Assembly: GCA_016183325.1 (NCBI GenBank) | Contig: JACPEV010000011.1 | Coordinates: 36,782 to 100,781, forward strand | Direction of reading: 5' to 3' | Length of the DNA: 64,000 nt | DNA from: Candidatus Curtissbacteria bacterium | GTDB taxonomy: Bacteria; Patescibacteriota; Microgenomatia; Curtissbacterales; GWA2-41-24 | Shown here: positions 5,873 to 43,064 of the stretch, piece after piece | Position numbering within the stretch: the stretch's first letter is position 1 | Layout of the letters: each line of letters starts with the position of its first letter | Position numbers and translations under genes: made by a program | Notes under the pieces: model-generated | Database searches by the model: none | Told to the model about the DNA's origin: nothing | Seen by the model: only the letters and a program-made list of their open reading frames with translations

Positions 5873-5945
5873 GCGCCCATAGCTCAACGGATAGAGCGTT
5901 CGCGTTCTAAGCGAGTGGTTGGGGGTTCGAATCCCTCTGGGCGCG
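5873..5945 (+). tRNA. tRNA-Arg (anticodon TCT)
   Basis: Acceptor GCGCCCA/TGGGCGC, loop GTTCTAA, T-loop TTCGAAT. Its 3' end plus 6 downstream nt (CTGGGCGCGCTAAAT) recurs twice downstream. Confidence 0.8.
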
Positions 5946-5951
5946 CTAAAT
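5937..5951 (+). repeat. Direct repeat copy 1 (CTGGGCGCGCTAAAT), overlapping the tRNA-Arg 3' end
   Basis: Identical 15-mer at 6498-6512; 14/15 match at 7268-7282. Confidence 0.8.
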
Positions 5952-6497: not shown

Positions 6498-6512
6498 CTG
6501 GGCGCGCTAAAT
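6498..6512 (+). repeat. Direct repeat copy 2 (CTGGGCGCGCTAAAT); it contains the stop codon of the epimerase gene
   Basis: Exact match to 5937-5951. Confidence 0.8.
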
Positions 6513-7238
6513 TGAACCAGCATTGTCAGCTGGTTCGTAACCCAATTCTTTTTGAGCATTGCTAATATCCCAAAATCTGCCATCATTATTAGAAACTCCA
6601 TAATAAATCCCAAACTCAACAGGTGCCTGAAGTGATTTCTGTATAAGTTGTATAAGATCTCGATGGCTAAGCCAAGTTTTTCTCATCCTCTCATCTGCTC
6701 TTGGATCGTCCTCTTTTGTAACTGTCCCTATTCTTAGACAGATAGATTGAACATCATATAATTCGTAATATTGCCGCGCTAATCCTTCGCCAAATAGTTT
6801 ACTATTACCATAATCGCTATCAGGCCTTACTGGATCATTAACAGTGATAACTCTTGGAGTCTTTTGTTTATGGAGAGTTGGAGGCGTACCTTCATAGAGA
6901 CCGGTGACGTGATTCGAGCTGGCGAAGACAATTCTTCTTACCCCAAACAATCTTGCGCACTCATATACATTTTTAGTACCAATTATATTATTTCTTAATA
7001 CGGAGTCCCACGGAGCATCAACCCTCGAATCTGCGCCCAAATGAATTATATATTTTACATCGCCAATTTTTGAAAAGATTTTTTTAAATGATTCAAAATC
7101 GGTTATATCTGCTTTATAAAATCTATCAGTATCATCCCCTACTTGATCGACTGTATATACCTTATATAAATTATTCAGGGGTTCTTTTAGCACCGTTCCT
7201 ATTGTTCCTTCAGAACCAGTCATAATTAGCTTTTTCAT
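6507..7238 (-). CDS. NAD-dependent epimerase/dehydratase family (SDR-like) protein
   Basis: 243 aa. N-terminal Rossmann motif MTGSEGTIGTVL. Bracketed precisely by repeat copies 2 and 3. Confidence 0.7.
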   Translation of the reverse strand: MKKLIMTGSEGTIGTVLKEPLNNLYKVYTVDQVGDDTDRFYKADITDFESFKKIFSKIGDVKYIIHLGADSRVDAPWDSVLRNNIIGTKNVYECARLFGVRRIVFASSNHVTGLYEGTPPTLHKQKTPRVITVNDPVRPDSDYGNSKLFGEGLARQYYELYDVQSICLRIGTVTKEDDPRADERMRKTWLSHRDLIQLIQKSLQAPVEFGIYYGVSNNDGRFWDISNAQKELGYEPADNAGSI

Positions 7239-7267
7239 CGGTCTAAGTATATACCAACTAACTGTTT

Positions 7268-7282
7268 CTGGGCGCGCTAAAA
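7268..7282 (+). repeat. Direct repeat copy 3 (CTGGGCGCGCTAAAA), 29 bp upstream of the epimerase start
   Basis: 14/15 match to the tRNA-Arg 3' end repeat. Confidence 0.75.
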
Positions 7283-7343: not shown

Positions 7344-8225
7344 ATGAAAAAGGGAAGGTCAGTTGTGAATAAATTGATCAACTATGGTATTTATCTGGCC
7401 GTAGTTGCGATGTTCGCGGCGTATTTAGTTATATCAACAACGAATGACGGGCTCGGTACTGTTGCGGCCGCTCGCGACTCAGCCCCTAGCATTGGATCCG
7501 CCCCTGACCCAAGTCCGAGCTCATCACCGCCTCCTACCCCAGAGCCGGTGTACAAGGGCTATTGCCTGAATGTTCCGGTTTTAATGTATCACCATGTTGA
7601 ACCGATTGAGCAAGCTCGCGCCGCTTGGCATGCGCAATTGACTGTTGATGTTGGCGTTTTTGAGAACCAAATGAAATATTTGATCTCGCGGGGTTACAAA
7701 ACAATTTTTGCCGATGAGCTTGTTGATGCTTTAATCAATAAGCGAAGCTTACCTGCAAAAAGTGTTGTTATCACTATGGATGACGGATATAGTGATATTT
7801 ACACTTATGCATACGAAATCTTGAAGAAGCATGACATTAGGGCAAATTTGATGATATCAACCGGCCTTTTGGAAAATCCTGGATATATGACTTGGAATCA
7901 ATTAAAACAAATGGTTCAGAGTGGTCACGTGACTGCGTATGATCATACCTGGTCGCATAGTTCACTCGTAGGTAAATCAAATGAGAAAGCAATATATGAA
8001 ATTGTGACAGCAAAAGAGCAACTTGAGCAGCAGCTTGCAAAAAACCAGAATATTTTTGCATATCCTTATGGGACATATGACTCGCGAGTAATTAGTTTGC
8101 TTAGGGAAAATGGATTTATAGCCGCTTTTTCGACAGATGGCGGAACTATCCAATGTGATTCTTTTATTATGAGTTTACACAGGGTAAGGGTGGGCAATTT
8201 TCCACTTTCAGCTTACGGAATTTAG
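7344..8225 (+). CDS. Polysaccharide deacetylase (NodB/CE4 family), membrane-anchored with a Pro/Ser-rich linker
   Basis: VITMDDGYSD, HDIRANLMIS and HTWSHSSL motifs. N-terminal TM helix. Confidence 0.8.
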   Translation: MKKGRSVVNKLINYGIYLAVVAMFAAYLVISTTNDGLGTVAAARDSAPSIGSAPDPSPSSSPPPTPEPVYKGYCLNVPVLMYHHVEPIEQARAAWHAQLTVDVGVFENQMKYLISRGYKTIFADELVDALINKRSLPAKSVVITMDDGYSDIYTYAYEILKKHDIRANLMISTGLLENPGYMTWNQLKQMVQSGHVTAYDHTWSHSSLVGKSNEKAIYEIVTAKEQLEQQLAKNQNIFAYPYGTYDSRVISLLRENGFIAAFSTDGGTIQCDSFIMSLHRVRVGNFPLSAYGI

Positions 8226-8329: not shown

Positions 8330-8402
8330 GGAGGTCGTAGCTCAATGGCAGAGCAGCAGCTTGTGGAGCTGCGGGTTGGGGGTTCAATTCCCCTCGGCCT
8401 CC
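8330..8402 (+). tRNA. tRNA-His (anticodon GTG) with encoded G-1
   Basis: An extra 5' G pairs with the discriminator C. Anticodon stem GCAGC/GCTGC with loop TTGTGGA. Confidence 0.85.
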
Positions 8403-39803: not shown

Positions 39804-40760
39804 CTAATCAGTGAAGACCTGCGTGAACATTTTGCCGTAGACTCCCCCGTCGATAGCGCCGATGCCGATTTTTTTAAAGGCAGGGTCAAGAATGTTACGC
39901 TTGTGACCCTCGCTGTTCATTAACCCAATATGAGCGCGCGTGACATCCGGTGCCAAAGCAAGATTCTCACCAGCCATGGTAAAACCAATATTTGCCCCCT
40001 CTAGTCTATCTCCCACGTCTTTGCCTTCGGGAGAGTAGTGCGAAAAATACCCTTTTTCAAACATATCTTTGGAATGATTTCTGCCGACTTGAGCGCGAGC
40101 TTCGTCCCAAACTAGCGGCTGAACTCCGTACTTAATTCTTTCTTGATTAACAAGTTCCAGCATTTTCTGCTCGCCGGCGTAGTCTATGGTCAGTTGCCTT
40201 TGAGTAAACTCAAGAGGAATCGAGCCTTTTTCTTCGGGTTTAACTGTTAAAAAAGTCAGGCTTTGTTTGGCGATGGGCCCAAAAATGCTACTTATGGGTT
40301 TTTCGAGGACAGAAGCACTGCTGACTAATGCGGAGCCAAGTTGAGAGTCGAATATGTCCTTTTTAATGTCGGGCCTTATGGGAAGCGAGGCCACAAAAAG
40401 AAGAATAAAAGCTAAAAATAAAAGCGCGTTGATTGTGGCAGGAATAAATCCGAAATATTTATTGATGGTATTTTTGTTAACTAATTGTAAAAGTCGGCCG
40501 AAAAAACCATTAAAGATCGTAAAAAAGAGACTCTCTATGATGATCCAAACCAATAAAAATCCAATAGGATTTGCAATGATCTTTGGTAAGTTAAAATATT
40601 TCGTGAGTAGTTGTGCTGAAAATGGGTAAAGATTGAGTGAAGCGATAAGAGAAACCAAAAAGCCGATTATTTCGATGACTTGAGCAAAAAAACCACGTCT
40701 TAAGCCTTCTAGGGCAAATGTGATAACAACAAGGATAATTAAAAGATCAACCCAGTTCAT
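39804..40760 (-). CDS. CvpA-family membrane domain fused to a CAP/SCP (PR-1/YkwD-like) domain
   Basis: N-terminus MNWVDLLIILVVITFALEGLRRGFF (CvpA-like). C-terminus ...GRNHSKDMFEKGYFSHYSPEGKDVGDRL...GENLA...HIGLMNSEGHKRNIL (CAP domain). Confidence 0.65.
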   Translation of the reverse strand: MNWVDLLIILVVITFALEGLRRGFFAQVIEIIGFLVSLIASLNLYPFSAQLLTKYFNLPKIIANPIGFLLVWIIIESLFFTIFNGFFGRLLQLVNKNTINKYFGFIPATINALLFLAFILLFVASLPIRPDIKKDIFDSQLGSALVSSASVLEKPISSIFGPIAKQSLTFLTVKPEEKGSIPLEFTQRQLTIDYAGEQKMLELVNQERIKYGVQPLVWDEARAQVGRNHSKDMFEKGYFSHYSPEGKDVGDRLEGANIGFTMAGENLALAPDVTRAHIGLMNSEGHKRNILDPAFKKIGIGAIDGGVYGKMFTQVFTD

Positions 40761-40801
40761 ACATTAAATTATACCCAAAAAAATGAGAGAATTCTGAAGG
40801 G

Positions 40802-40818
40802 TGGCCCTACGGGGAGTC
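40802..40818 (-). repeat. 17-bp copy of the tRNA-Glu 3' end (GACTCCCCGTAGGGCCA), an att-like direct repeat
   Basis: Exact match to 41180-41196 inside the tRNA-Glu gene. The 361 bp between the two copies contain only a GIY-YIG gene. Confidence 0.8.
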
Positions 40819-40885
40819 TACACTTCGCTCGAAATAGTTTTTTCGAGCTTCGAGTAGTTTATATTCCCTTGAACCATATTCTTCC

Positions 40886-41143
40886 CTAAAGTTTCTTTAG
40901 AGATTTAAGAAAATGTTTATACATAAAAGCAACTCCTGATCCTGATTTTAAGTATTTTTCAAAACCCAAAGCGTCAGCTTTCTCAACGAACGAGGAATAG
41001 TGCACAAGTTTGTAATTCAGGTTAGATTTTGTCGACTGAACTTTACCTGATAGATGTCTTTGGATACGTTTTCTTAAATCTGGAGTGTAACCTATGTAAT
41101 ATCGATTTGTAATTTCGTTAAATAAAATGTAAACGTAATACAT
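40886..41143 (-). CDS. Small GIY-YIG nuclease, YhbQ/UPF0213-like (85 aa)
   Basis: YYVYILFNEITNRYYIGYTPDLRKRIQRHLSGK (GIY...YIG, R, H..G) and the downstream E/K-rich helix. Confidence 0.8.
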   Translation of the reverse strand: MYYVYILFNEITNRYYIGYTPDLRKRIQRHLSGKVQSTKSNLNYKLVHYSSFVEKADALGFEKYLKSGSGVAFMYKHFLKSLKKL

Positions 41144-41179
41144 TAGGGGTTTACTATCCGAAACTTTAGTGAAGGATAG

Positions 41180-41251
41180 TGGCCCTACGGGGAGTCGAAC
41201 CCCGCTTTGGACCTTGAAAGAGTCCCGTCCTAACCGATAGACGATAGGGCC
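41180..41251 (-). tRNA. tRNA-Glu (anticodon TTC)
   Basis: Reverse complement folds as GGCCCTA acceptor, anticodon stem GGACT/GGTCC, loop CTTTCAA, T-loop TTCGACT. Confidence 0.85.
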
Positions 41252-41333
41252 TCAATCGAGATAATAGTGAATAGAAAATGGAAAATAGTCTAGTCACCAA
41301 GACCAGGAAAAAAGCCTAGCAATTTTACCACAA

Positions 41334-42011
41334 TTACCCTTGCTTCTTAAACTTCTCGACTACTGTTTCAAGTAAGGACCGTGCCACAGTTTGTCCACCT
41401 AACCCAAATGCTAAGCCTCCCGCAATCGCGAGCATAGCCACAAGTCCTGCAAATAAAATCCGCAATAATTCCTGGGCAACTCCCAGTTGGTGTAGCACTA
41501 AAAAAGCTACGAAAACTGTCAGGGACCAACGAGCCACAAGAGCCACAACGTGGGCGGTATCCCTTCCCAGTGAGTGACTTGCGCTATAAGTAACTCTATA
41601 AGCGAGTTTTGAGAGTACTATGCCAATTACTGCCAAAATTACTGCAACAACAACATTGGGGATATAAAGTAGAACCCGCGCCAGAACTGTATTGACAGAA
41701 TCGAGACGCCACGCCTGGAAAGTAGGAATCAGGAAAATAATTATGATTGTCCAGCGTGTAATTTCTGCCAAAACATCAGTCCATTCAATTTCTCTGCCTT
41801 CTACCTTGACTATTCCGTACTTCTCCAGATACCTTTCTATCTTTAGAGTCTTGAGAATGCCAACTATGACTCTATAGGCAATGGCTCCAGCTGCTAAGCC
41901 TATTGAAAGAACAATCAGTCCCCCCAAAAGGGAAGGAATAAAATTAATAAAAGCAGCCAAAGAGTTAATCACCACAGAAGAAACTGCTGTCGTTAAATCT
42001 TCAACGCTCAT
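41334..42011 (-). CDS. Multi-pass membrane protein with conserved TM-helix repeats (MscS-N-terminal-like), visibly higher GC than its neighbours
   Basis: 225 aa with ≥5 TM segments and repeated L...AG...A motifs. Confidence 0.4.
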   Translation of the reverse strand: MSVEDLTTAVSSVVINSLAAFINFIPSLLGGLIVLSIGLAAGAIAYRVIVGILKTLKIERYLEKYGIVKVEGREIEWTDVLAEITRWTIIIIFLIPTFQAWRLDSVNTVLARVLLYIPNVVVAVILAVIGIVLSKLAYRVTYSASHSLGRDTAHVVALVARWSLTVFVAFLVLHQLGVAQELLRILFAGLVAMLAIAGGLAFGLGGQTVARSLLETVVEKFKKQG

Positions 42012-42106: not shown

Positions 42107-42168
42107 GGGGGTATAGCTCAATTTAGTTAGATCCGGCGGTGCCGGACTTTGACGAGTGAACTCTAGTT
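42107..42168 (+). other. tRNA-like pseudo-element 1: a tRNA 5' half (GGGGGTATAGCTCAATTTAGTTAGA) with the D-stem/anticodon-stem replaced by hairpin TCCGGCGGTGCCGGA, followed by an anticodon-loop-like CTTTGAC
   Basis: Cannot fold as a cloverleaf. Shares the hairpin insertion with element 2. Confidence 0.45.
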
Positions 42169-42185: not shown

Positions 42186-42240
42186 GGCCCGCTAGCTCAA
42201 TGGTAGATCCGGCGAAGCCGGACTTTTAAGCGATTGGTTC
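42186..42240 (+). other. tRNA-like pseudo-element 2: a copy of tRNA-Lys nt 1-23 plus 34-52, with the central 8 nt replaced by hairpin TCCGGCGAAGCCGGA; it abuts the GIY-YIG start codon
   Basis: GGCCCGCTAGCTCAATGGTAGA-[hairpin]-CTTTTAAGCGATTGGTT matches the intact tRNA-Lys at 42489 except for the replaced core. Confidence 0.6.
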
Positions 42241-42498
42241 ATGTATACTGTCTACGTAATTAAAAGTGAATCGACGGGCAAAATATATATTGGTCAAACA
42301 GCAGTTAAAGTAACAAGATTAAAAAGGCACAATAAGGAGCTGCCTTATAATCCAAAAGGATTTACAGCAAAGAATGTAGGGCCGTGGAGAATTGTTTACG
42401 AAGAAACTTTTGAGACAAGAACAGAAGCATTAAAAAAAGAAAAATATTTAAAATCACACGTGGGACGCGATTACATCAGAAAAACATTGGCCCGCTAG
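42241..42498 (+). CDS. Small GIY-YIG nuclease, YhbQ/UPF0213-like (85 aa); its stop codon lies inside the 5' end of tRNA-Lys
   Basis: MYTVYVIKSESTGKIYIGQTAVKVTRLKRHN... The stop TAG comes from GGCCCGC-TAG-CTC of the tRNA. Confidence 0.8.
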   Translation: MYTVYVIKSESTGKIYIGQTAVKVTRLKRHNKELPYNPKGFTAKNVGPWRIVYEETFETRTEALKKEKYLKSHVGRDYIRKTLAR

Positions 42499-42560
42499 CT
42501 CAATGGTAGAGCAATCGCCTTTTAAGCGATTGGTTACAGGTTCGATCCCTGTGCGGGTCA
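42489..42560 (+). tRNA. tRNA-Lys (anticodon TTT)
   Basis: Acceptor GGCCCGC/GCGGGTC, anticodon stem ATCGC/GCGAT, loop CTTTTAA, T-loop TTCGATC. Confidence 0.85.
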
Positions 42561-42572
42561 CTCTTCGACTCG

Positions 42573-42594
42573 CCCTGAGAGTAATCGAAGGGCT
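42573..42594 (+). repeat. 22-bp hairpin-containing direct repeat CCCTGAGAGTAATCGAAGGGCT, upstream flank of the third GIY-YIG gene
   Basis: Counterpart CCCTGAGTTTATCGAAGGGCT at 42947-42967, immediately after the gene. Confidence 0.6.
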
Positions 42595-42661
42595 CGCTCA
42601 GAGTAAACTCGAGTTGAAGAACCCTGAGCGAATTATAATGTTGAGAGAATCGAAACATTAA

Positions 42662-42934
42662 ATGAGTCGAAGGGCTAATGTATCTTGGTACGTATATATA
42701 GCTAAAGCAAAAACTGGCAGATATTACACAGGTATAACCACAAGTCCAGATAAAAGAATTATTAAACATAACTCCGGGAAGGGTTTAAAGTTTGCCATAG
42801 AGCAAGGCCCATTTGAATTGGTCTATGTCTCAGAAGCATTTCCAAATAAGTCAGAAGCAAGAAAACGAGAAATTCAAATTAAAGGCTGGTCGAGAGAAAA
42901 GAAATTAAAACTAATAAGCGGCGAGTGGAAATAA
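42662..42934 (+). CDS. Small GIY-YIG nuclease, YhbQ/UPF0213-like (90 aa)
   Basis: WYVYIAKAKTGRYYTGITTSPDKRIIKHNSGKGLKFA...LVYVSEAFPNKSEARKREIQIKGWSREKK closely follows the YhbQ pattern. Confidence 0.8.
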   Translation: MSRRANVSWYVYIAKAKTGRYYTGITTSPDKRIIKHNSGKGLKFAIEQGPFELVYVSEAFPNKSEARKREIQIKGWSREKKLKLISGEWK

Positions 42935-43064
42935 AATTGAAGTTTACCCTGAGTTTATCGAAGGGCTGAAAGCGTTCCAGTACCCTTTGCCCCAACTATA
43001 TCTTTAACTTCGCTTTTTAACAAATCTATGTGTAAATGGAATTTTAGCCACAAAAGGCATATAA

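Follow-up and report, generated by a model that had tools for sequence, protein, structure and literature searches.

A hairpin-ended GIY-YIG nuclease cassette directly downstream of tRNA-Glu in Candidatus Curtissbacteria and its relatives behind other tRNA genes

A GIY-YIG gene between two copies of the tRNA-Glu 3' end

The 64-kb stretch of Candidatus Curtissbacteria DNA that was analysed here (the window) contains an intact tRNA-Glu(UUC) gene on the minus strand at positions 41180-41251, with the discriminator base A73 at 41180. The limits of the gene were set at 41179-41251 by ARAGORN and at 41180-41251 by the Rfam model RF00005, which matched with 56 bits over model positions 1-71. Directly 3' of this tRNA, past C74 and in the same orientation, a cassette is inserted, and the element proper comprises positions 40819-41178, about 360 bp. 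The flanks of the cassette are formed by conserved host genes, namely a CvpA/CAP gene (39804-40760) and a mechanosensitive-channel-like gene (41334-42011).

A preliminary description of the locus, made from the nucleotide sequence, had reported that the last 17 nt of tRNA-Glu are duplicated exactly on the other side of the cassette. The duplication proved to be real, with a length of 18 nt instead of 17. Exact copies of the 17-mer GACTCCCCGTAGGGCCA occur on the minus strand at only two places of the 64-kb window, 40802-40818 and 41180-41196, and no match was obtained in 100 dinucleotide-preserving shuffles, even when up to two mismatches were allowed. The exact repeat extends over 18 nt (40801-40818 equals 41179-41196), the extra base being C74, the first base past the discriminator; a C is likewise the next base in 22 of 22 metagenome tRNA-Glu genes with the same 3' end. 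The proximal copy GACTCCCCGTAGGGCCAC at 41179-41196 (minus strand) represents tRNA nt G57-A73 plus C74. The distal copy at 40801-40818 (minus strand), which was detected by repeat search and is followed by host sequence from position 40800 on, represents the target-site duplication. Since the insertion duplicated tRNA nt G57-C74 (18 nt), the tRNA stays intact. The 18-nt repeat is best described as a target-site duplication and not as an att site carried by the element.

That the repeat arose by chance, or belongs to a host module unrelated to mobility such as a processing or terminator signal, is hardly credible. The small size of the repeat is the sole argument in its favour, and it is opposed by the absence of matches in the shuffles, by the recurrence of such repeats with specificity for the local tRNA and by the presence/absence polymorphism of the cassette described below. 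A retroelement-like primer-binding site, which would be complementary over 18 nt to the 3' end of a tRNA, was also considered and rejected, as the copy is in sense orientation, CCA is inconsistently included and a reverse transcriptase is missing.

The preliminary description had further placed a single 85-aa UPF0213-type GIY-YIG gene and no integrase between the two copies. Both statements hold: the sole substantial ORF, 40886-41143, matches PF01541, and it stands alone between the repeats.

The deduced g1 protein consists of a bare GIY-YIG domain

The gene at 40886-41143 on the minus strand, named g1, encodes a stand-alone GIY-YIG nuclease of 85 aa according to its PF01541 match, its conserved residues and its AlphaFold model. 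The match to PF01541 (E = 4e-14, 53 bits at a cut-off of 22.6) covers a single domain at residues 1-67. The residues Y3, Y5, G18, R26, H30 and E62 are shared by all of 27 homologues, and Y16 by nearly all of them. The AlphaFold2 model displays the GIY-YIG alpha/beta fold with a pLDDT of 92.7, and its top PDB matches in a Foldseek search were the UPF0213 protein BH0048 (rank 1), Slx1 and the catalytic domain of I-TevI. Additionally, the family profile (A1) matched 1zg2 (BH0048) with E = 7e-12 and 1ywl (EF2693) with E = 1e-5. Sequence and model comparisons thus point to g1 as a stand-alone GIY-YIG catalytic domain with UPF0213 and Slx1 as its closest relatives.

Searches of Pfam, NCBIfam, PHROGs and PADLOC yielded only GIY-YIG or weak homing-endonuclease matches and no transposase of a known class (DDE, HUH, serine, tyrosine or Cas1). 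The match to TIGR01453, for instance, reached 24.8 bits at a cut-off of 56 and was confined to residues 4-46. A C-terminal DNA-binding domain of the I-TevI/Seg type is missing, all 85 aa of g1 being taken up by the catalytic domain.

The cassette ends in inverted hairpins

The left terminal hairpin CTATCCTTCACTAAAGTTTCGGATAG is located at 41154-41179 on the minus strand and was recognised by reading of the sequence, by conservation in the g1 clade and by DNA folding. At this end the element proper begins with TATCC, and C74 of the tRNA closes the stem. The hairpin is kept in all g1-clade cassettes, the homology of which starts there in the alignment. Its predicted 6-bp stem is weak when folded alone (-2 kcal/mol, z = -0.65), and the sixth stem pair is C:G in the window and T:A in the relatives. 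The right terminal hairpin CTACTCGAAGCTCGAAAAAACTATTTCGAGCGAAGTGTAG at 40818-40857 (minus strand) was detected by inverted-repeat search, DNA folding (z = -3.2) and alignment. Here the element ends with ...GTGTA, G57 of the distal tRNA copy closes the stem, and the cassette homology stops in the alignment. The right end represents an inverted repeat of the left end, as 5'-TAYMCTTCRCT is found on both strands throughout the g1 clade.

The outer stem of the right hairpin covaries among the relatives (CTAC/GTAG, TTGC/GCAA, CTCT/AGAG). In a covariation test with a single-class alignment and explicit pair counting, 95.4% of the cells in the terminal hairpins were paired versus 82.4% in shuffles, a value that none of 500 shuffles reached, and compensatory changes were present in six of seven outer pairs. 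RNAalifold returned no structure for an alignment mixing hairpin classes. Rfam searches of the window region and of 10 related loci, with gathering and E-value thresholds, detected tRNA and tmRNA only; accordingly, no Rfam family covers the terminal hairpins and no group I intron was found in these regions. A 19-nt segment just past the stop codon (40877-40895, minus strand) is 89% complementary to the left end at 41160-41178 and could pair with it across the whole ORF.

With respect to expression, a candidate promoter, TTAAGA-17-TAAAAT with TG, is present 5' of tRNA-Glu at 41322-41350 (minus strand); it was assigned by consensus match alone, and the count of promoter-like sites in the region is not above that in shuffles. 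No promoter-like site was found between tRNA-Glu and the GIY-YIG ORF. The cassette is probably transcribed from the tRNA promoter, the site at 41322-41350 being a candidate for co-transcription of tRNA and cassette. Besides the cassette itself no further g1 termini occur in the 64-kb window, and with one copy of this type recent intragenomic transposition is not visible there.

Two further GIY-YIG cassettes flank the neighbouring tRNA-Lys

Two more small GIY-YIG cassettes, which the preliminary description had missed, flank a tRNA-Lys gene at a distance of 1-2 kb from the tRNA-Glu cassette. The second cassette, of the g2 type, was identified by repeat searches and a domain match at 42186-42498 on the plus strand. 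It starts with a repeat of tRNA-Lys nt 1-22 (42186-42207), continues with the hairpin TCCGGCGAAGCCGGA (42208-42222) and a repeat of tRNA nt 31-47 (42223-42239), and closes with a GIY-YIG ORF of 85 aa (42241-42498), which adjoins the complete tRNA-Lys (42489-42561). The same design is found in the related loci L129 and L017. The third cassette, of the g3 type, was recognised by its ORF and a domain match and lies directly past C74 of tRNA-Lys at 42562-42965 (plus strand). It comprises the left end CTCTTCGACTCGCCCTGAG..., a 90-aa GIY-YIG ORF (42662-42934), whose product matches UPF0213 with E = 2e-18, and the right end GAAGTTTACCCTGAGTTTATCGAAGGG (42939-42965).

The right end of the g3 cassette is near-identical to that of gene-less miniature elements in loci L001 (3325-3408) and L004 (445-556), which are accompanied by tRNA-end duplications of 16-18 nt. 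These miniatures indicate that mobilisation in trans does occur, and they agree with the view that the whole cassette is a non-autonomous passenger, i.e. a hairpin-ended unit that depends for its movement on a transposase, recombinase or host factor encoded outside it, and in which the GIY-YIG gene would be cargo with another role, for example in ssDNA restriction or repair. The lack of any known GIY-YIG transposase also speaks for a passenger. On the other side, the GIY-YIG gene is the only constant gene, no other gene being shared by the flanks of more than 100 related loci; at least three GIY-YIG subfamilies (g1, g2 and g3) each have their own type of ends; and CPR genomes are tiny. We consider a passenger element improbable.

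Related cassettes carry duplications of the local tRNA

Cassettes of the g1 clade were found at seven independent sites in CPR genomes (the window, L001/L004, L011, L114, L115, L117-122 and L123-125), with 60-80% amino acid identity and with left and right ends common to all of them. The targets are three tRNA-Glu(UUC) sequences, tRNA-Lys(UUU), tRNA-Lys(CUU) and a half-tRNA. Behind each cassette the 3' end of the local tRNA is repeated, and the repeat corresponds to nt 57-74 (18 nt, G57-C74) at five of the seven sites; one of these five G57-start duplications has one mismatch, and the upstream tRNA of L114 lies beyond the contig end. Shorter duplications are present in L011 (17 nt, starting from A58) and in L001/L004 (10 nt). 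In alignment A4 the cassette homology begins past C74 and ends with ...GAAGTGTA. The cassettes of L001 and L004, which come from the metagenomes ERZ27247591 and ERZ4903055, are identical in 369 of 369 DNA positions, with differing upstream contexts and unrelated downstream flanks (104/237), and a comparison of L117 with L118 revealed that synteny breaks exactly past the duplication.

Similar signatures were detected in Bacteroidota. The cassettes in L017, L027 and L053 have an exact 20-nt duplication, T55-C74, and clear inverted hairpin ends, L053 carrying CTTGKCCTCCATAGCTTTAGCGACGGAGG at both ends in inverted orientation; in L057 the 20-nt T55-C74 duplication has a small internal deletion. 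The start of the duplication in the T-loop is thus fixed per clade in most copies, at either nt 57 or nt 55. These comparisons show that the cassette is a discrete unit with defined ends and that the duplication always matches the local tRNA.

The search for more copies at other tRNA genes, proposed in the preliminary description, accordingly placed the cassette family behind at least five different tRNA sequences. One of the two interpretations offered there, a very small tRNA-targeting selfish unit, is supported by the recurrence of the same architecture behind many tRNAs, by repeats that match the local tRNA and by the identical cassette with different flanks. The other, a remnant of a larger element with attL/attR geometry of site-specific insertion, finds no support: the repeat is made from the local target and is not element-borne, one lineage resides at at least five tRNA sequences, the unit has its own inverted hairpin ends and a fixed duplication start, and no copy is accompanied by an integrase. 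In its explicit form, this interpretation regards the locus as an integrase island at the tRNA-Glu 3' end that has lost all but one gene. Direct repeats of a tRNA 3' end are indeed the classical signature of tyrosine integrases, and tRNA and tmRNA genes are their usual targets. We nevertheless judge such an origin very unlikely, as the same minimal geometry without an integrase occurs in dozens of genomes, the repeats track the local tRNA and not the element with its own inverted-repeat termini, and the flanking genes are syntenic host genes.

The distribution of the cassettes also bears on a free-standing homing gene, for which true transposition would not be needed. The nuclease would cut cassette-free tRNA alleles and the cassette would be copied in by double-strand-break repair or during natural transformation, with the tRNA as upstream and the 18-nt repeat as downstream homology arm, the repeat having arisen once and been inherited. 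Identical cassettes and repeats in different downstream contexts are expected if both arms lie within the tRNA; moreover, GIY-YIG is a classical homing-endonuclease fold, g1 has weak matches to homing-endonuclease families, and a tRNA cluster of phage T4 harbours a homing gene of the GIY-YIG type, segB (PMC2330249). However, one cassette lineage is found behind at least five tRNA sequences, each with its own matching repeat, which indicates that new duplications were generated repeatedly. Furthermore, the 85-aa protein has no DNA-binding domain like that of I-TevI or Seg, and homing requires neither terminal inverted repeats nor a mostly fixed duplication start. Homing without transposition is in our opinion rather unlikely.

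Distribution of the family and empty sites

The wider family was sampled with 80 loci from 80 species, 69 of which have enough upstream sequence. A same-strand tRNA ends within 300 nt upstream in 52 of these 69 loci; five of the remaining 17 have a tmRNA, and others contain tRNA or tmRNA 3' remnants. The upstream tRNA was on the same strand 59 times and on the opposite strand once. Of 54 loci, 11 carry an anchored duplication of at least 9 nt, as compared with a mean of 0.84 and a maximum of 5 in permutations, and six carry one of at least 12 nt, for which the permutation mean was 0.14. Only about 20% of the loci in the more distant clades have a detectable duplication, and the signature is thus either eroded or not produced by every insertion. 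Besides the 10 nt of L001/L004, other duplications of 9-16 nt also fall short of the norm of their clade. When 1.84 billion cluster representatives were searched with a profile, 19,567 relatives were retrieved at E <= 1e-3, and 4,536 at the stricter limit of E <= 1e-10. These data show that the cassette family resides behind many different tRNAs and tmRNAs across phyla. Cultivable carriers are found among the Chitinophagaceae, for example Niastella (L022) and Flavihumibacter (L015). A scan of viral contigs returned only three relatives, which argues against phage carriage as the main vehicle. Neither an integrase nor any other shared gene was found in the flanks of more than 100 related loci.

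The empty site that a mobile cassette predicts, named in the preliminary description as a point of comparison, was found in distant relatives only. The cassette is missing at all 21 metagenome loci with an identical tRNA-Glu 3' end, and the distant relative L097 (60%) has the same gene order (ms, tRNA-Glu, cvpA) and no cassette. A search via the neighbouring cvpA gene yielded no near-isogenic pair of filled and empty sites, the closest relatives being 72-75% identical (best 75%) and having differently arranged tRNA loci on the cvpA side.

Proposed mode of insertion and its implications

Taken together, the stretch 40819-41178 is likely to be a complete mobile cassette of about 360 bp with hairpin inverted ends, which would have entered the tRNA-Glu locus by means of its own nuclease and host repair. 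The nuclease may recognise the terminal hairpins as structured, probably single-stranded DNA and may cut at their bases, a step modelled on the action of the nuclease Ssn at its NTS hairpins. Two nicks with a spacing of 18 nt, in the T-loop and past nt 74, would open the target, and filling of the gap by host repair followed by ligation would give the duplication. GIY-YIG enzymes are hydrolytic nucleases and, to our knowledge, none of them performs strand transfer; integration must therefore use host functions or a further partner. An established cassette might also spread between genomes by recombination, with the conserved tRNA as one homology arm and the duplicated end as the other.

As a bolder and quite tentative extension, the cassettes might constitute a new superfamily of autonomous DNA transposons, the sole protein of which, a GIY-YIG nuclease of 80-90 residues, would recognise both the hairpin ends and a tRNA-shaped target with a stagger of 18-20 nt. 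This stagger would reach from the T-loop to nt 74, or from nt 1 to the D-loop in the type located on the 5' side, and host repair would complete the insertion. If this were true, no smaller protein-coding mobile element would be known, and a GIY-YIG nuclease would for the first time be seen in the role of a transposase.

Literature searches returned no earlier account of small GIY-YIG cassettes that are linked to tRNA genes and duplicate their target. A mobile element that measures about 360 bp, ends in inverted hairpins, duplicates 18-20 bp of its target and involves neither a known transposase nor a known integrase would raise the question whether a bare GIY-YIG domain can drive insertion. 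By settling at the 3' end of tRNA and tmRNA genes, it would exploit a safe harbour that is universal. It would also explain a very common feature of bacterial genomes, namely small genes for a 'GIY-YIG family protein' adjoining tRNA genes, near which tRNA fragments and hairpin repeats generate spurious ORF extensions. In the tiny genomes of CPR bacteria the cassettes appear to rearrange tRNA loci repeatedly: nested insertions were observed, as were tRNA genes that are split or replaced, and synteny is broken at the duplication; such rearrangements matter for tRNA annotation and for CPR genome plasticity. Moreover, the known pairs of Ssn nucleases and hairpins would be extended by new protein-hairpin specificities, which suggests a selfish origin for the Ssn pairs.

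Comparison with known systems

With respect to classical IS elements and DNA transposons, the g1 cassette shares inverted repeats and a duplication of characteristic length, and it lacks a transposase of a known class. Elements of the IS200/IS605 and REP/RAYT groups are likewise small, have hairpin ends read as ssDNA and give rise to abundant gene-less hairpin derivatives. They are not known to have inverted-repeat symmetry or to produce a target duplication, and they use a HUH transposase, whereas no HUH protein is encoded at the g1 cassette. Islands and prophages with tyrosine integrases resemble the cassette in targeting tRNA and tmRNA 3' ends, in the direct repeats of the tRNA 3' end and in preserving the tRNA; the cassette differs by its size of about 360 bp, its missing integrase, its inverted hairpin termini and a repeat that stems from the target and not from attP. 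Proteins of the UPF0213 or stand-alone Slx1-like type (BH0048, 1zg2; EF2693, 1ywl; the E. coli YhbQ type) consist of a minimal GIY-YIG domain, as does g1, and are without an assigned function or a described genomic context.

Enzymes of the Seg and I-TevI type have 200-250 aa and two domains, one of which binds DNA; they make a 2-nt staggered break and are not known to be associated with a target duplication or with inverted-repeat ends. In contrast, g1 has 85 aa and the cassette duplication comprises 18-20 nt. The shared feature is the position of the gene: segB of phage T4 is a GIY-YIG gene embedded among tRNA genes, as is the g1 cassette, and SegB promotes its own inheritance by cutting DNA (PMC2330249). 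A phylogenomic survey of the GIY-YIG superfamily contains nothing on mobility or tRNA linkage of the UPF0213-type proteins (PMC1564403). Casposons combine terminal inverted repeats, a fixed target duplication of about 14-15 bp and a preference for tRNA 3' ends (PMC4046053, PMC5137440). The g1 cassette resembles them in its inverted repeats, its unusually long fixed duplication and its insertion at a tRNA 3' end; it differs in that casposons are 8-20 kb long and encode Cas1 and PolB, and the cassette has no cas1.

The closest functional analogue of the g1 protein is Ssn, an ssDNA nuclease that is guided by hairpins. Ssn is a GIY-YIG protein of 94 aa with a single domain; bound to a flanking hairpin in ssDNA, it cuts the strand a few nt beyond the hairpin (PMC11893778). 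Both proteins comprise a single GIY-YIG domain of about 90 aa (85 aa in g1; the Ssn criterion is <150 aa) without a DNA-binding domain, and the spacing of the catalytic Tyr, Tyr and Glu is equivalent (Y6/Y17/E64 in Ssn, Y5/Y16/E62 in g1). The g1 gene has hairpin-forming repeats of the 20-50-nt class on both sides in an IS-like layout, and the junctions between cassette and flanks lie where Ssn cuts, a few nt outside the hairpin. The hairpin sequences of the g1 cassette differ from those of Ssn: the SRM pattern HGTCWYN(0-2)YYVSBRHN(0-5)WNVSBRGN(0-2)RNCYNB has no match in the 64-kb window and none within 400 nt of the gene in 80 related loci, so that the analogy is by architecture only. Chenal et al. 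(2025, Nat Commun) noted the IS-like NTS-ssnA-NTS layout; in their description Ssn has been domesticated to modulate transformation, and the NTS copies of a genome number in the hundreds. Their paper, in which the word tRNA is missing, reports no tRNA association, target duplication or insertion site (PMC11893778).

The focal cassette and its GIY-YIG protein

The 17-mer that the preliminary description had presented as an exact direct repeat of the tRNA-Glu 3' end occurs exactly twice in the window (40802-40818 and 41180-41196, minus strand), and shuffled versions of the window yielded no match to it, even with two mismatches. The exactness was thus borne out and a chance repeat is excluded, whereas the length has to be extended to 18 nt (40801-40818 and 41179-41196), with an ambiguity of one base at duplication boundaries wherever flank and element have the same base. 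The intact tRNA-Glu(UUC) gene was placed on the minus strand at 41179-41251 by ARAGORN and at 41180-41251 by Rfam (56 bits), according to which the repeat spans tRNA nucleotides G57 to A73 and the following base C74. The sole real ORF between the two copies (40886-41143, minus strand) specifies an 85-aa protein with a PF01541 GIY-YIG domain (E = 4e-14), in agreement with the earlier claim of one GIY-YIG gene between the repeats.

Within the GIY-YIG superfamily, this protein belongs to the stand-alone UPF0213/Slx1-like group; an NCBI entry from a Candidatus Curtissbacteria (CPR/Patescibacteria) bacterium has the identical sequence (100%). The AlphaFold model (pLDDT 92.7) has the GIY-YIG fold without a second domain, and the nearest solved structures are the UPF0213 protein BH0048 (1zg2), Slx1 and the catalytic domain of I-TevI. 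The residues Y3, Y5, G18, R26, H30 and E62 and the KSGSG motif are invariant among the homologues, and Y16 is nearly so. NCBIfam, PHROGs and PADLOC contributed just weak homing-endonuclease matches in the N-terminal half.

Related cassettes behind other tRNA genes

The close homologues of the protein (60-86% identity) all stem from CPR metagenomes, and the DNA around several of them was retrieved for a comparison of loci. Further copies of the cassette at other tRNA genes, which the preliminary description had proposed to search for, were indeed found. The loci L001 and L004 encode the same protein (80% identity) behind tRNA-Lys(UUU), with the 10-nt duplication GTGCCCCCAC after the right end in L001 and a duplication at the same site with one mismatch in L004. 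The cassette of L011 (79%) is located behind a tRNA-Glu differing from that of the window (duplication AATCCGGTACGCGGTAC, 17 nt), those of L115 and L116 (66%) behind a third tRNA-Glu (GATTCCCGATGGGGTCAC, 18 nt), those of L117 to L122 (64%) behind a 3' half-tRNA (GAATCCGACTGGGGGTAC, 18 nt) and those of L123 to L125 (60%) behind tRNA-Lys(CUU) (GAGTCTCACCTGGGTCAC, 17 of 18 positions matching), and in L114 (77%; GAATCCCCTTGGCGCCAC, 18 nt) the tRNA lies beyond the contig end.

In all compared loci of this type the tRNA is directly followed by C-TATC(C/T)TTCGCTAAAG...GATAG, and the duplicated tRNA end is directly preceded by ...CTACTCGAAGC...GAGCGAAGTGTA. A six-way alignment placed the onset of cassette homology immediately after C74 and its end at ...GAAGTGTA, every locus having its own tRNA sequence outside these limits. 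Since cassette homology stops at the ends while the repeats match the tRNA of each locus, the repeat is a target-site duplication, copied from the target whenever the element inserts, and no att core is carried by the element. The cassette termini are mutual inverted repeats (5'-TAYMCTTCRCT on both strands). The earlier attL/attR reading was consequently abandoned, as the repeat follows the local tRNA and not the element, the unit has its own inverted termini and no integrase was found anywhere. The same observations, along with the recurrence of the minimal unit, disfavour the proposed remnant of a larger, integrase-borne island, which we consider highly improbable.

Each terminus lies within an imperfect hairpin, the closing pair of which takes a base from the flank (C74 on the left, G57 on the right). 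In 17 sequences of the left-end hairpin 95.4% of the cells pair, versus 82.4% in shuffles (none of 500 reached the observed value) and just 27-48% with slid partners; compensatory changes were detected in six of the seven outer pairs, and the inner GC pairs are invariant. The cassette termini are rich in CGAAG, and the hairpin of the g2 cassette at the neighbouring tRNA-Lys contains GCGAAGC. Likewise, hairpins at 40819-40857, at 42208-42222 and in many related loci are built around CGAAG, GCGAAGC or CGTAG. As DNA, d(GCGAAGC) folds into a mini-hairpin of unusual stability. This would favour DNA rather than RNA structure at the cassette ends, which, if so, would be adapted to folding as single-stranded DNA.

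Two variations of the hairpins were additionally observed. In L117 and L119 a 36-nt hairpin (CCCGTCCTCCGCAGTAGCAATGCTACGGAGGGTGG) is nested within the left terminal hairpin of the cassette (approximately L117 1432-1467) but missing from L118, the cassettes being otherwise 99% identical. Because the nested hairpin resembles the Bacteroidota-type end, its sequence suggests that single hairpin units may themselves be mobile. At the contig end of L114 (1-111), a 27-nt unit containing the left hairpin (TATCTAATTAAACAACAGATAGCAAGC) is present four times in tandem, owing to either a true end amplification or an assembly artefact.

Evidence for movement and empty sites

The cassettes of L001 and L004 are identical in 369 of 369 nucleotides, although the former is located directly behind a complete tRNA-Lys, the latter behind a 13-nt tRNA-end copy left by a separate 340-nt insert, and their downstream flanks are unrelated (104/237). 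The loci L117 and L118 are 99% identical upstream and match in 377 of 381 cassette positions, and this likeness stops exactly after the duplication. In L004 three serial inserts, a gene-less inverted-repeat element, the 340-nt element and the GIY-YIG cassette, follow one tRNA-Lys and are each succeeded by a tRNA-end copy (16, 13 and 8-10 nt, respectively), whereas L001 contains the cassette and the miniature element in reverse order. Pure homing without transposition would account for spread between like alleles but does not explain why new duplications have arisen time and again at different tRNAs, so that we regard it as unlikely. Somewhat less likely still is a passenger unit moved in trans, against which it counts that no gene other than the GIY-YIG gene is constant and that every GIY-YIG subfamily has its own end type.

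None of 21 metagenome contigs with an identical 22-nt tRNA-Glu 3' end carries the cassette, and all 21 have a C at nucleotide 74. One of them, L097, shows the gene order of the window (channel gene, tRNA-Glu, cvpA) with 128 nt where the cassette would be, albeit in a distant relative with a CvpA identity of just 60%. The comparison with empty sites that had been suggested was accordingly successful in part: cassette-free sites exist, one of them syntenic, but a near-isogenic one was not found in the databases via CvpA, since the nearest CvpA relatives are 72-75% identical. Two further tRNA-Glu loci deserve mention. In L104 (3015-3097) the 3' end of the tRNA recurs exactly over 25 nt behind a gene-free spacer of 39 nt, which could be either a very small insert or the footprint left by one that was lost; in L096 a complete tRNA-Glu precedes a second, of which just the 3' half is present, with a hairpin.

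Distribution of the wider family

When one genome per species was scanned with a degenerate pattern, at least 570 relatives were confirmed, and the best-scoring 80 of these, which are not a random sample, come from CPR, Bacteroidota, Gamma- and Alphaproteobacteria, Verrucomicrobiota and other groups. For 69 loci the upstream sequence comprised at least 400 nt, and in 52 of them a same-strand tRNA ends at most 300 nt upstream of the start codon, the median gap being 125 nt. These tRNAs are specific for Ser in 37 loci, for Trp in 4, for Tyr and Ala in 3 each, and for Leu, Lys, Gln, Val and Arg in a single locus each. With respect to strand, 59 upstream tRNAs are on the same strand as the gene and one on the opposite strand. 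An upstream tRNA is missing from the remaining 17 of the 69 loci. Five of them, from other phyla, contain a tmRNA (ssrA) gene ending 135-230 nt upstream (L033, L040, L058, L074 and L088, GIY-YIG start at 2501), and the left end of these cassettes (CCTTCGC...) begins right after the tmRNA CCA. Several more of the 17 loci have tmRNA or tRNA 3' remnants directly before the left end; ARAGORN misses fragments. In L013, L014, L016, L019 and L030 tmRNA-like 3' remnants occupy this position.

Among 54 loci, 11 have an anchored exact tRNA-end copy with a length of 9 nt or more behind the gene (permutation mean 0.84, maximum 5 in 500 permutations), and six have one of 12 nt or more (permutation mean 0.14). 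The Bacteroidota loci L017, L027 and L053 have an exact 20-nt duplication (T55-C74) and clean inverted hairpin termini, and L057 has this duplication with a small internal deletion. In the majority of distant members a recognisable duplication is missing, being either lost or never present. Searching 1.84 billion cluster representatives with a profile brought up 19,567 relatives at E <= 1e-3, of which 4,536 reached E <= 1e-10. Almost every one of the best 150 listed comprises 68-150 aa, and longer annotated proteins represent read-through into the hairpins, as exemplified by the C-terminal ...TTRSSKSEV, which is translated CTACTCGAAGC.

The neighbouring tRNA-Lys array and other tRNA-end repeats

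The tRNA-Lys gene at 42489-42561 (plus strand) is flanked by two small GIY-YIG genes on the same strand. The g2 cassette (42186-42498; 85-aa ORF 42241-42498) abuts the tRNA 5' end. Upstream of its gene, tRNA nucleotides 1-22 are copied exactly, followed by the hairpin TCCGGCGAAGCCGGA in place of nucleotides 23-30 and by a copy of nucleotides 31-47. This layout recurs in L129, where the tRNA-Lys 5' part differs and the hairpin covaries, and in the Bacteroidota locus L017 (2011-2325) as tRNA-Ser nucleotides 1-21, hairpins, GIY-YIG gene and full tRNA-Ser. By its sequence, this type looks like a mirror-image insertion on the 5' side, duplicating nucleotide 1 to the D-loop. The g3 cassette (42562-42965) encodes a 90-aa UPF0213-like protein (ORF 42662-42934) directly after C74 and has ends of the type CTCTTCGAC...CCCTGAG / ...CCCTGAGTTTATCGAAGGG. 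Its ends match, and its right end is near-identical to that of, the gene-less inverted-repeat elements of 78-110 nt in L001 (3325-3408) and L004 (445-556), which have tRNA-Lys end duplications of 16-18 nt.

Fragments of a second, GGGGG-type tRNA-Lys, a 5' part (GGGGGTATAGCTCAA... with the hairpin TCCGGCGGTGCCGGA; 42107-42165, plus strand) and a degenerate 3' part (GTTCCAGTACCCTTTGCCCCAAC; 42974-42996, plus strand), bracket the whole array, which suggests that an incoming block with its own tRNA-Lys may have split a resident tRNA gene and taken over its function. Similar tRNA-inside-tRNA arrangements occur in L001 (4298-4780, tRNA-Glu) and, without a GIY-YIG gene, in L011 (2508-2815). Elsewhere in the window, the last 11 nt of tRNA-Arg(UCU) together with the 4 nt behind them (TCTGGGCGCGCTAAA) recur unchanged 1.3 kb downstream (5936-5950 and 7267-7281, plus strand), enclosing an opposite-strand 243-aa ORF (6507-7238), read from its sequence as epimerase/dehydratase-like; this pair may mark a further insertion at a tRNA end, of an element with other cargo. 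A 13-nt copy of tRNA-His nucleotides 21-33 (GAGCAGCAGCTTG; 8025-8037 and 8351-8363, plus strand), 306 nt upstream of the tRNA, may be due to chance or be a remnant, as it falls inside or beside the end of ORF 7344-8225.

Putative mechanism of insertion and expression

The cassette is inserted exactly after nucleotide 74 in the orientation of the tRNA, which is preserved, and in most copies the duplication starts at a clade-specific position of the T-loop (nucleotide 57 or 55) and ends at nucleotide 74. Beyond this anatomy, the mechanistic steps are inferred. By analogy with Ssn, the hairpin-guided single-stranded DNA nuclease of Neisseria, the element's own nuclease would act on the hairpin ends of the cassette; both terminal hairpins have the junction with the flank at their base, the two being on opposite strands, and an Ssn-like enzyme would cut there. 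As the duplication comprises 18-20 nt, the target would be nicked at points 18-20 nt apart, followed by gap filling. Additional spread between genomes might occur by recombination, with the tRNA and its duplicated end as homology arms, since both lie inside a conserved gene; this would fit identical cassettes and repeats in differing downstream contexts. No promoter-like site was detected between tRNA-Glu and the ORF but one upstream of the tRNA (41350-41322), which, along with the strict co-orientation, suggests that the cassette is expressed from the tRNA promoter.

Comparison with known systems

In the searchable literature no description was found of small GIY-YIG cassettes that are linked to tRNA or tmRNA genes and show target duplications. 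The cassettes are rated as belonging with hairpin-flanked or free-standing GIY-YIG selfish genes; that they form a new class of transposon is less likely than not but has a substantial probability. They resemble integrase islands in their target and in the geometry of the repeats but encode no integrase, and they share inverted repeats and a long duplication at the tRNA end with casposons but lack the casposon enzyme. The nearest characterised enzyme is Ssn, a 94-aa single-domain GIY-YIG protein that binds its flanking hairpin only as single-stranded DNA and has its cut site a few nucleotides 5' of the hairpin; the authors of that study, which nowhere mentions tRNA, likened the arrangement NTS-ssnA-NTS, in which NTS denotes the hairpin repeats, to an insertion sequence (PMC11893778). 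The published hairpin pattern of this system (SRM), the one sequence criterion compared, sets the cassettes apart from Ssn, being absent from the window and from 80 related loci, whereas in their presumed mode of action they would be most like the Ssn-hairpin pairs.
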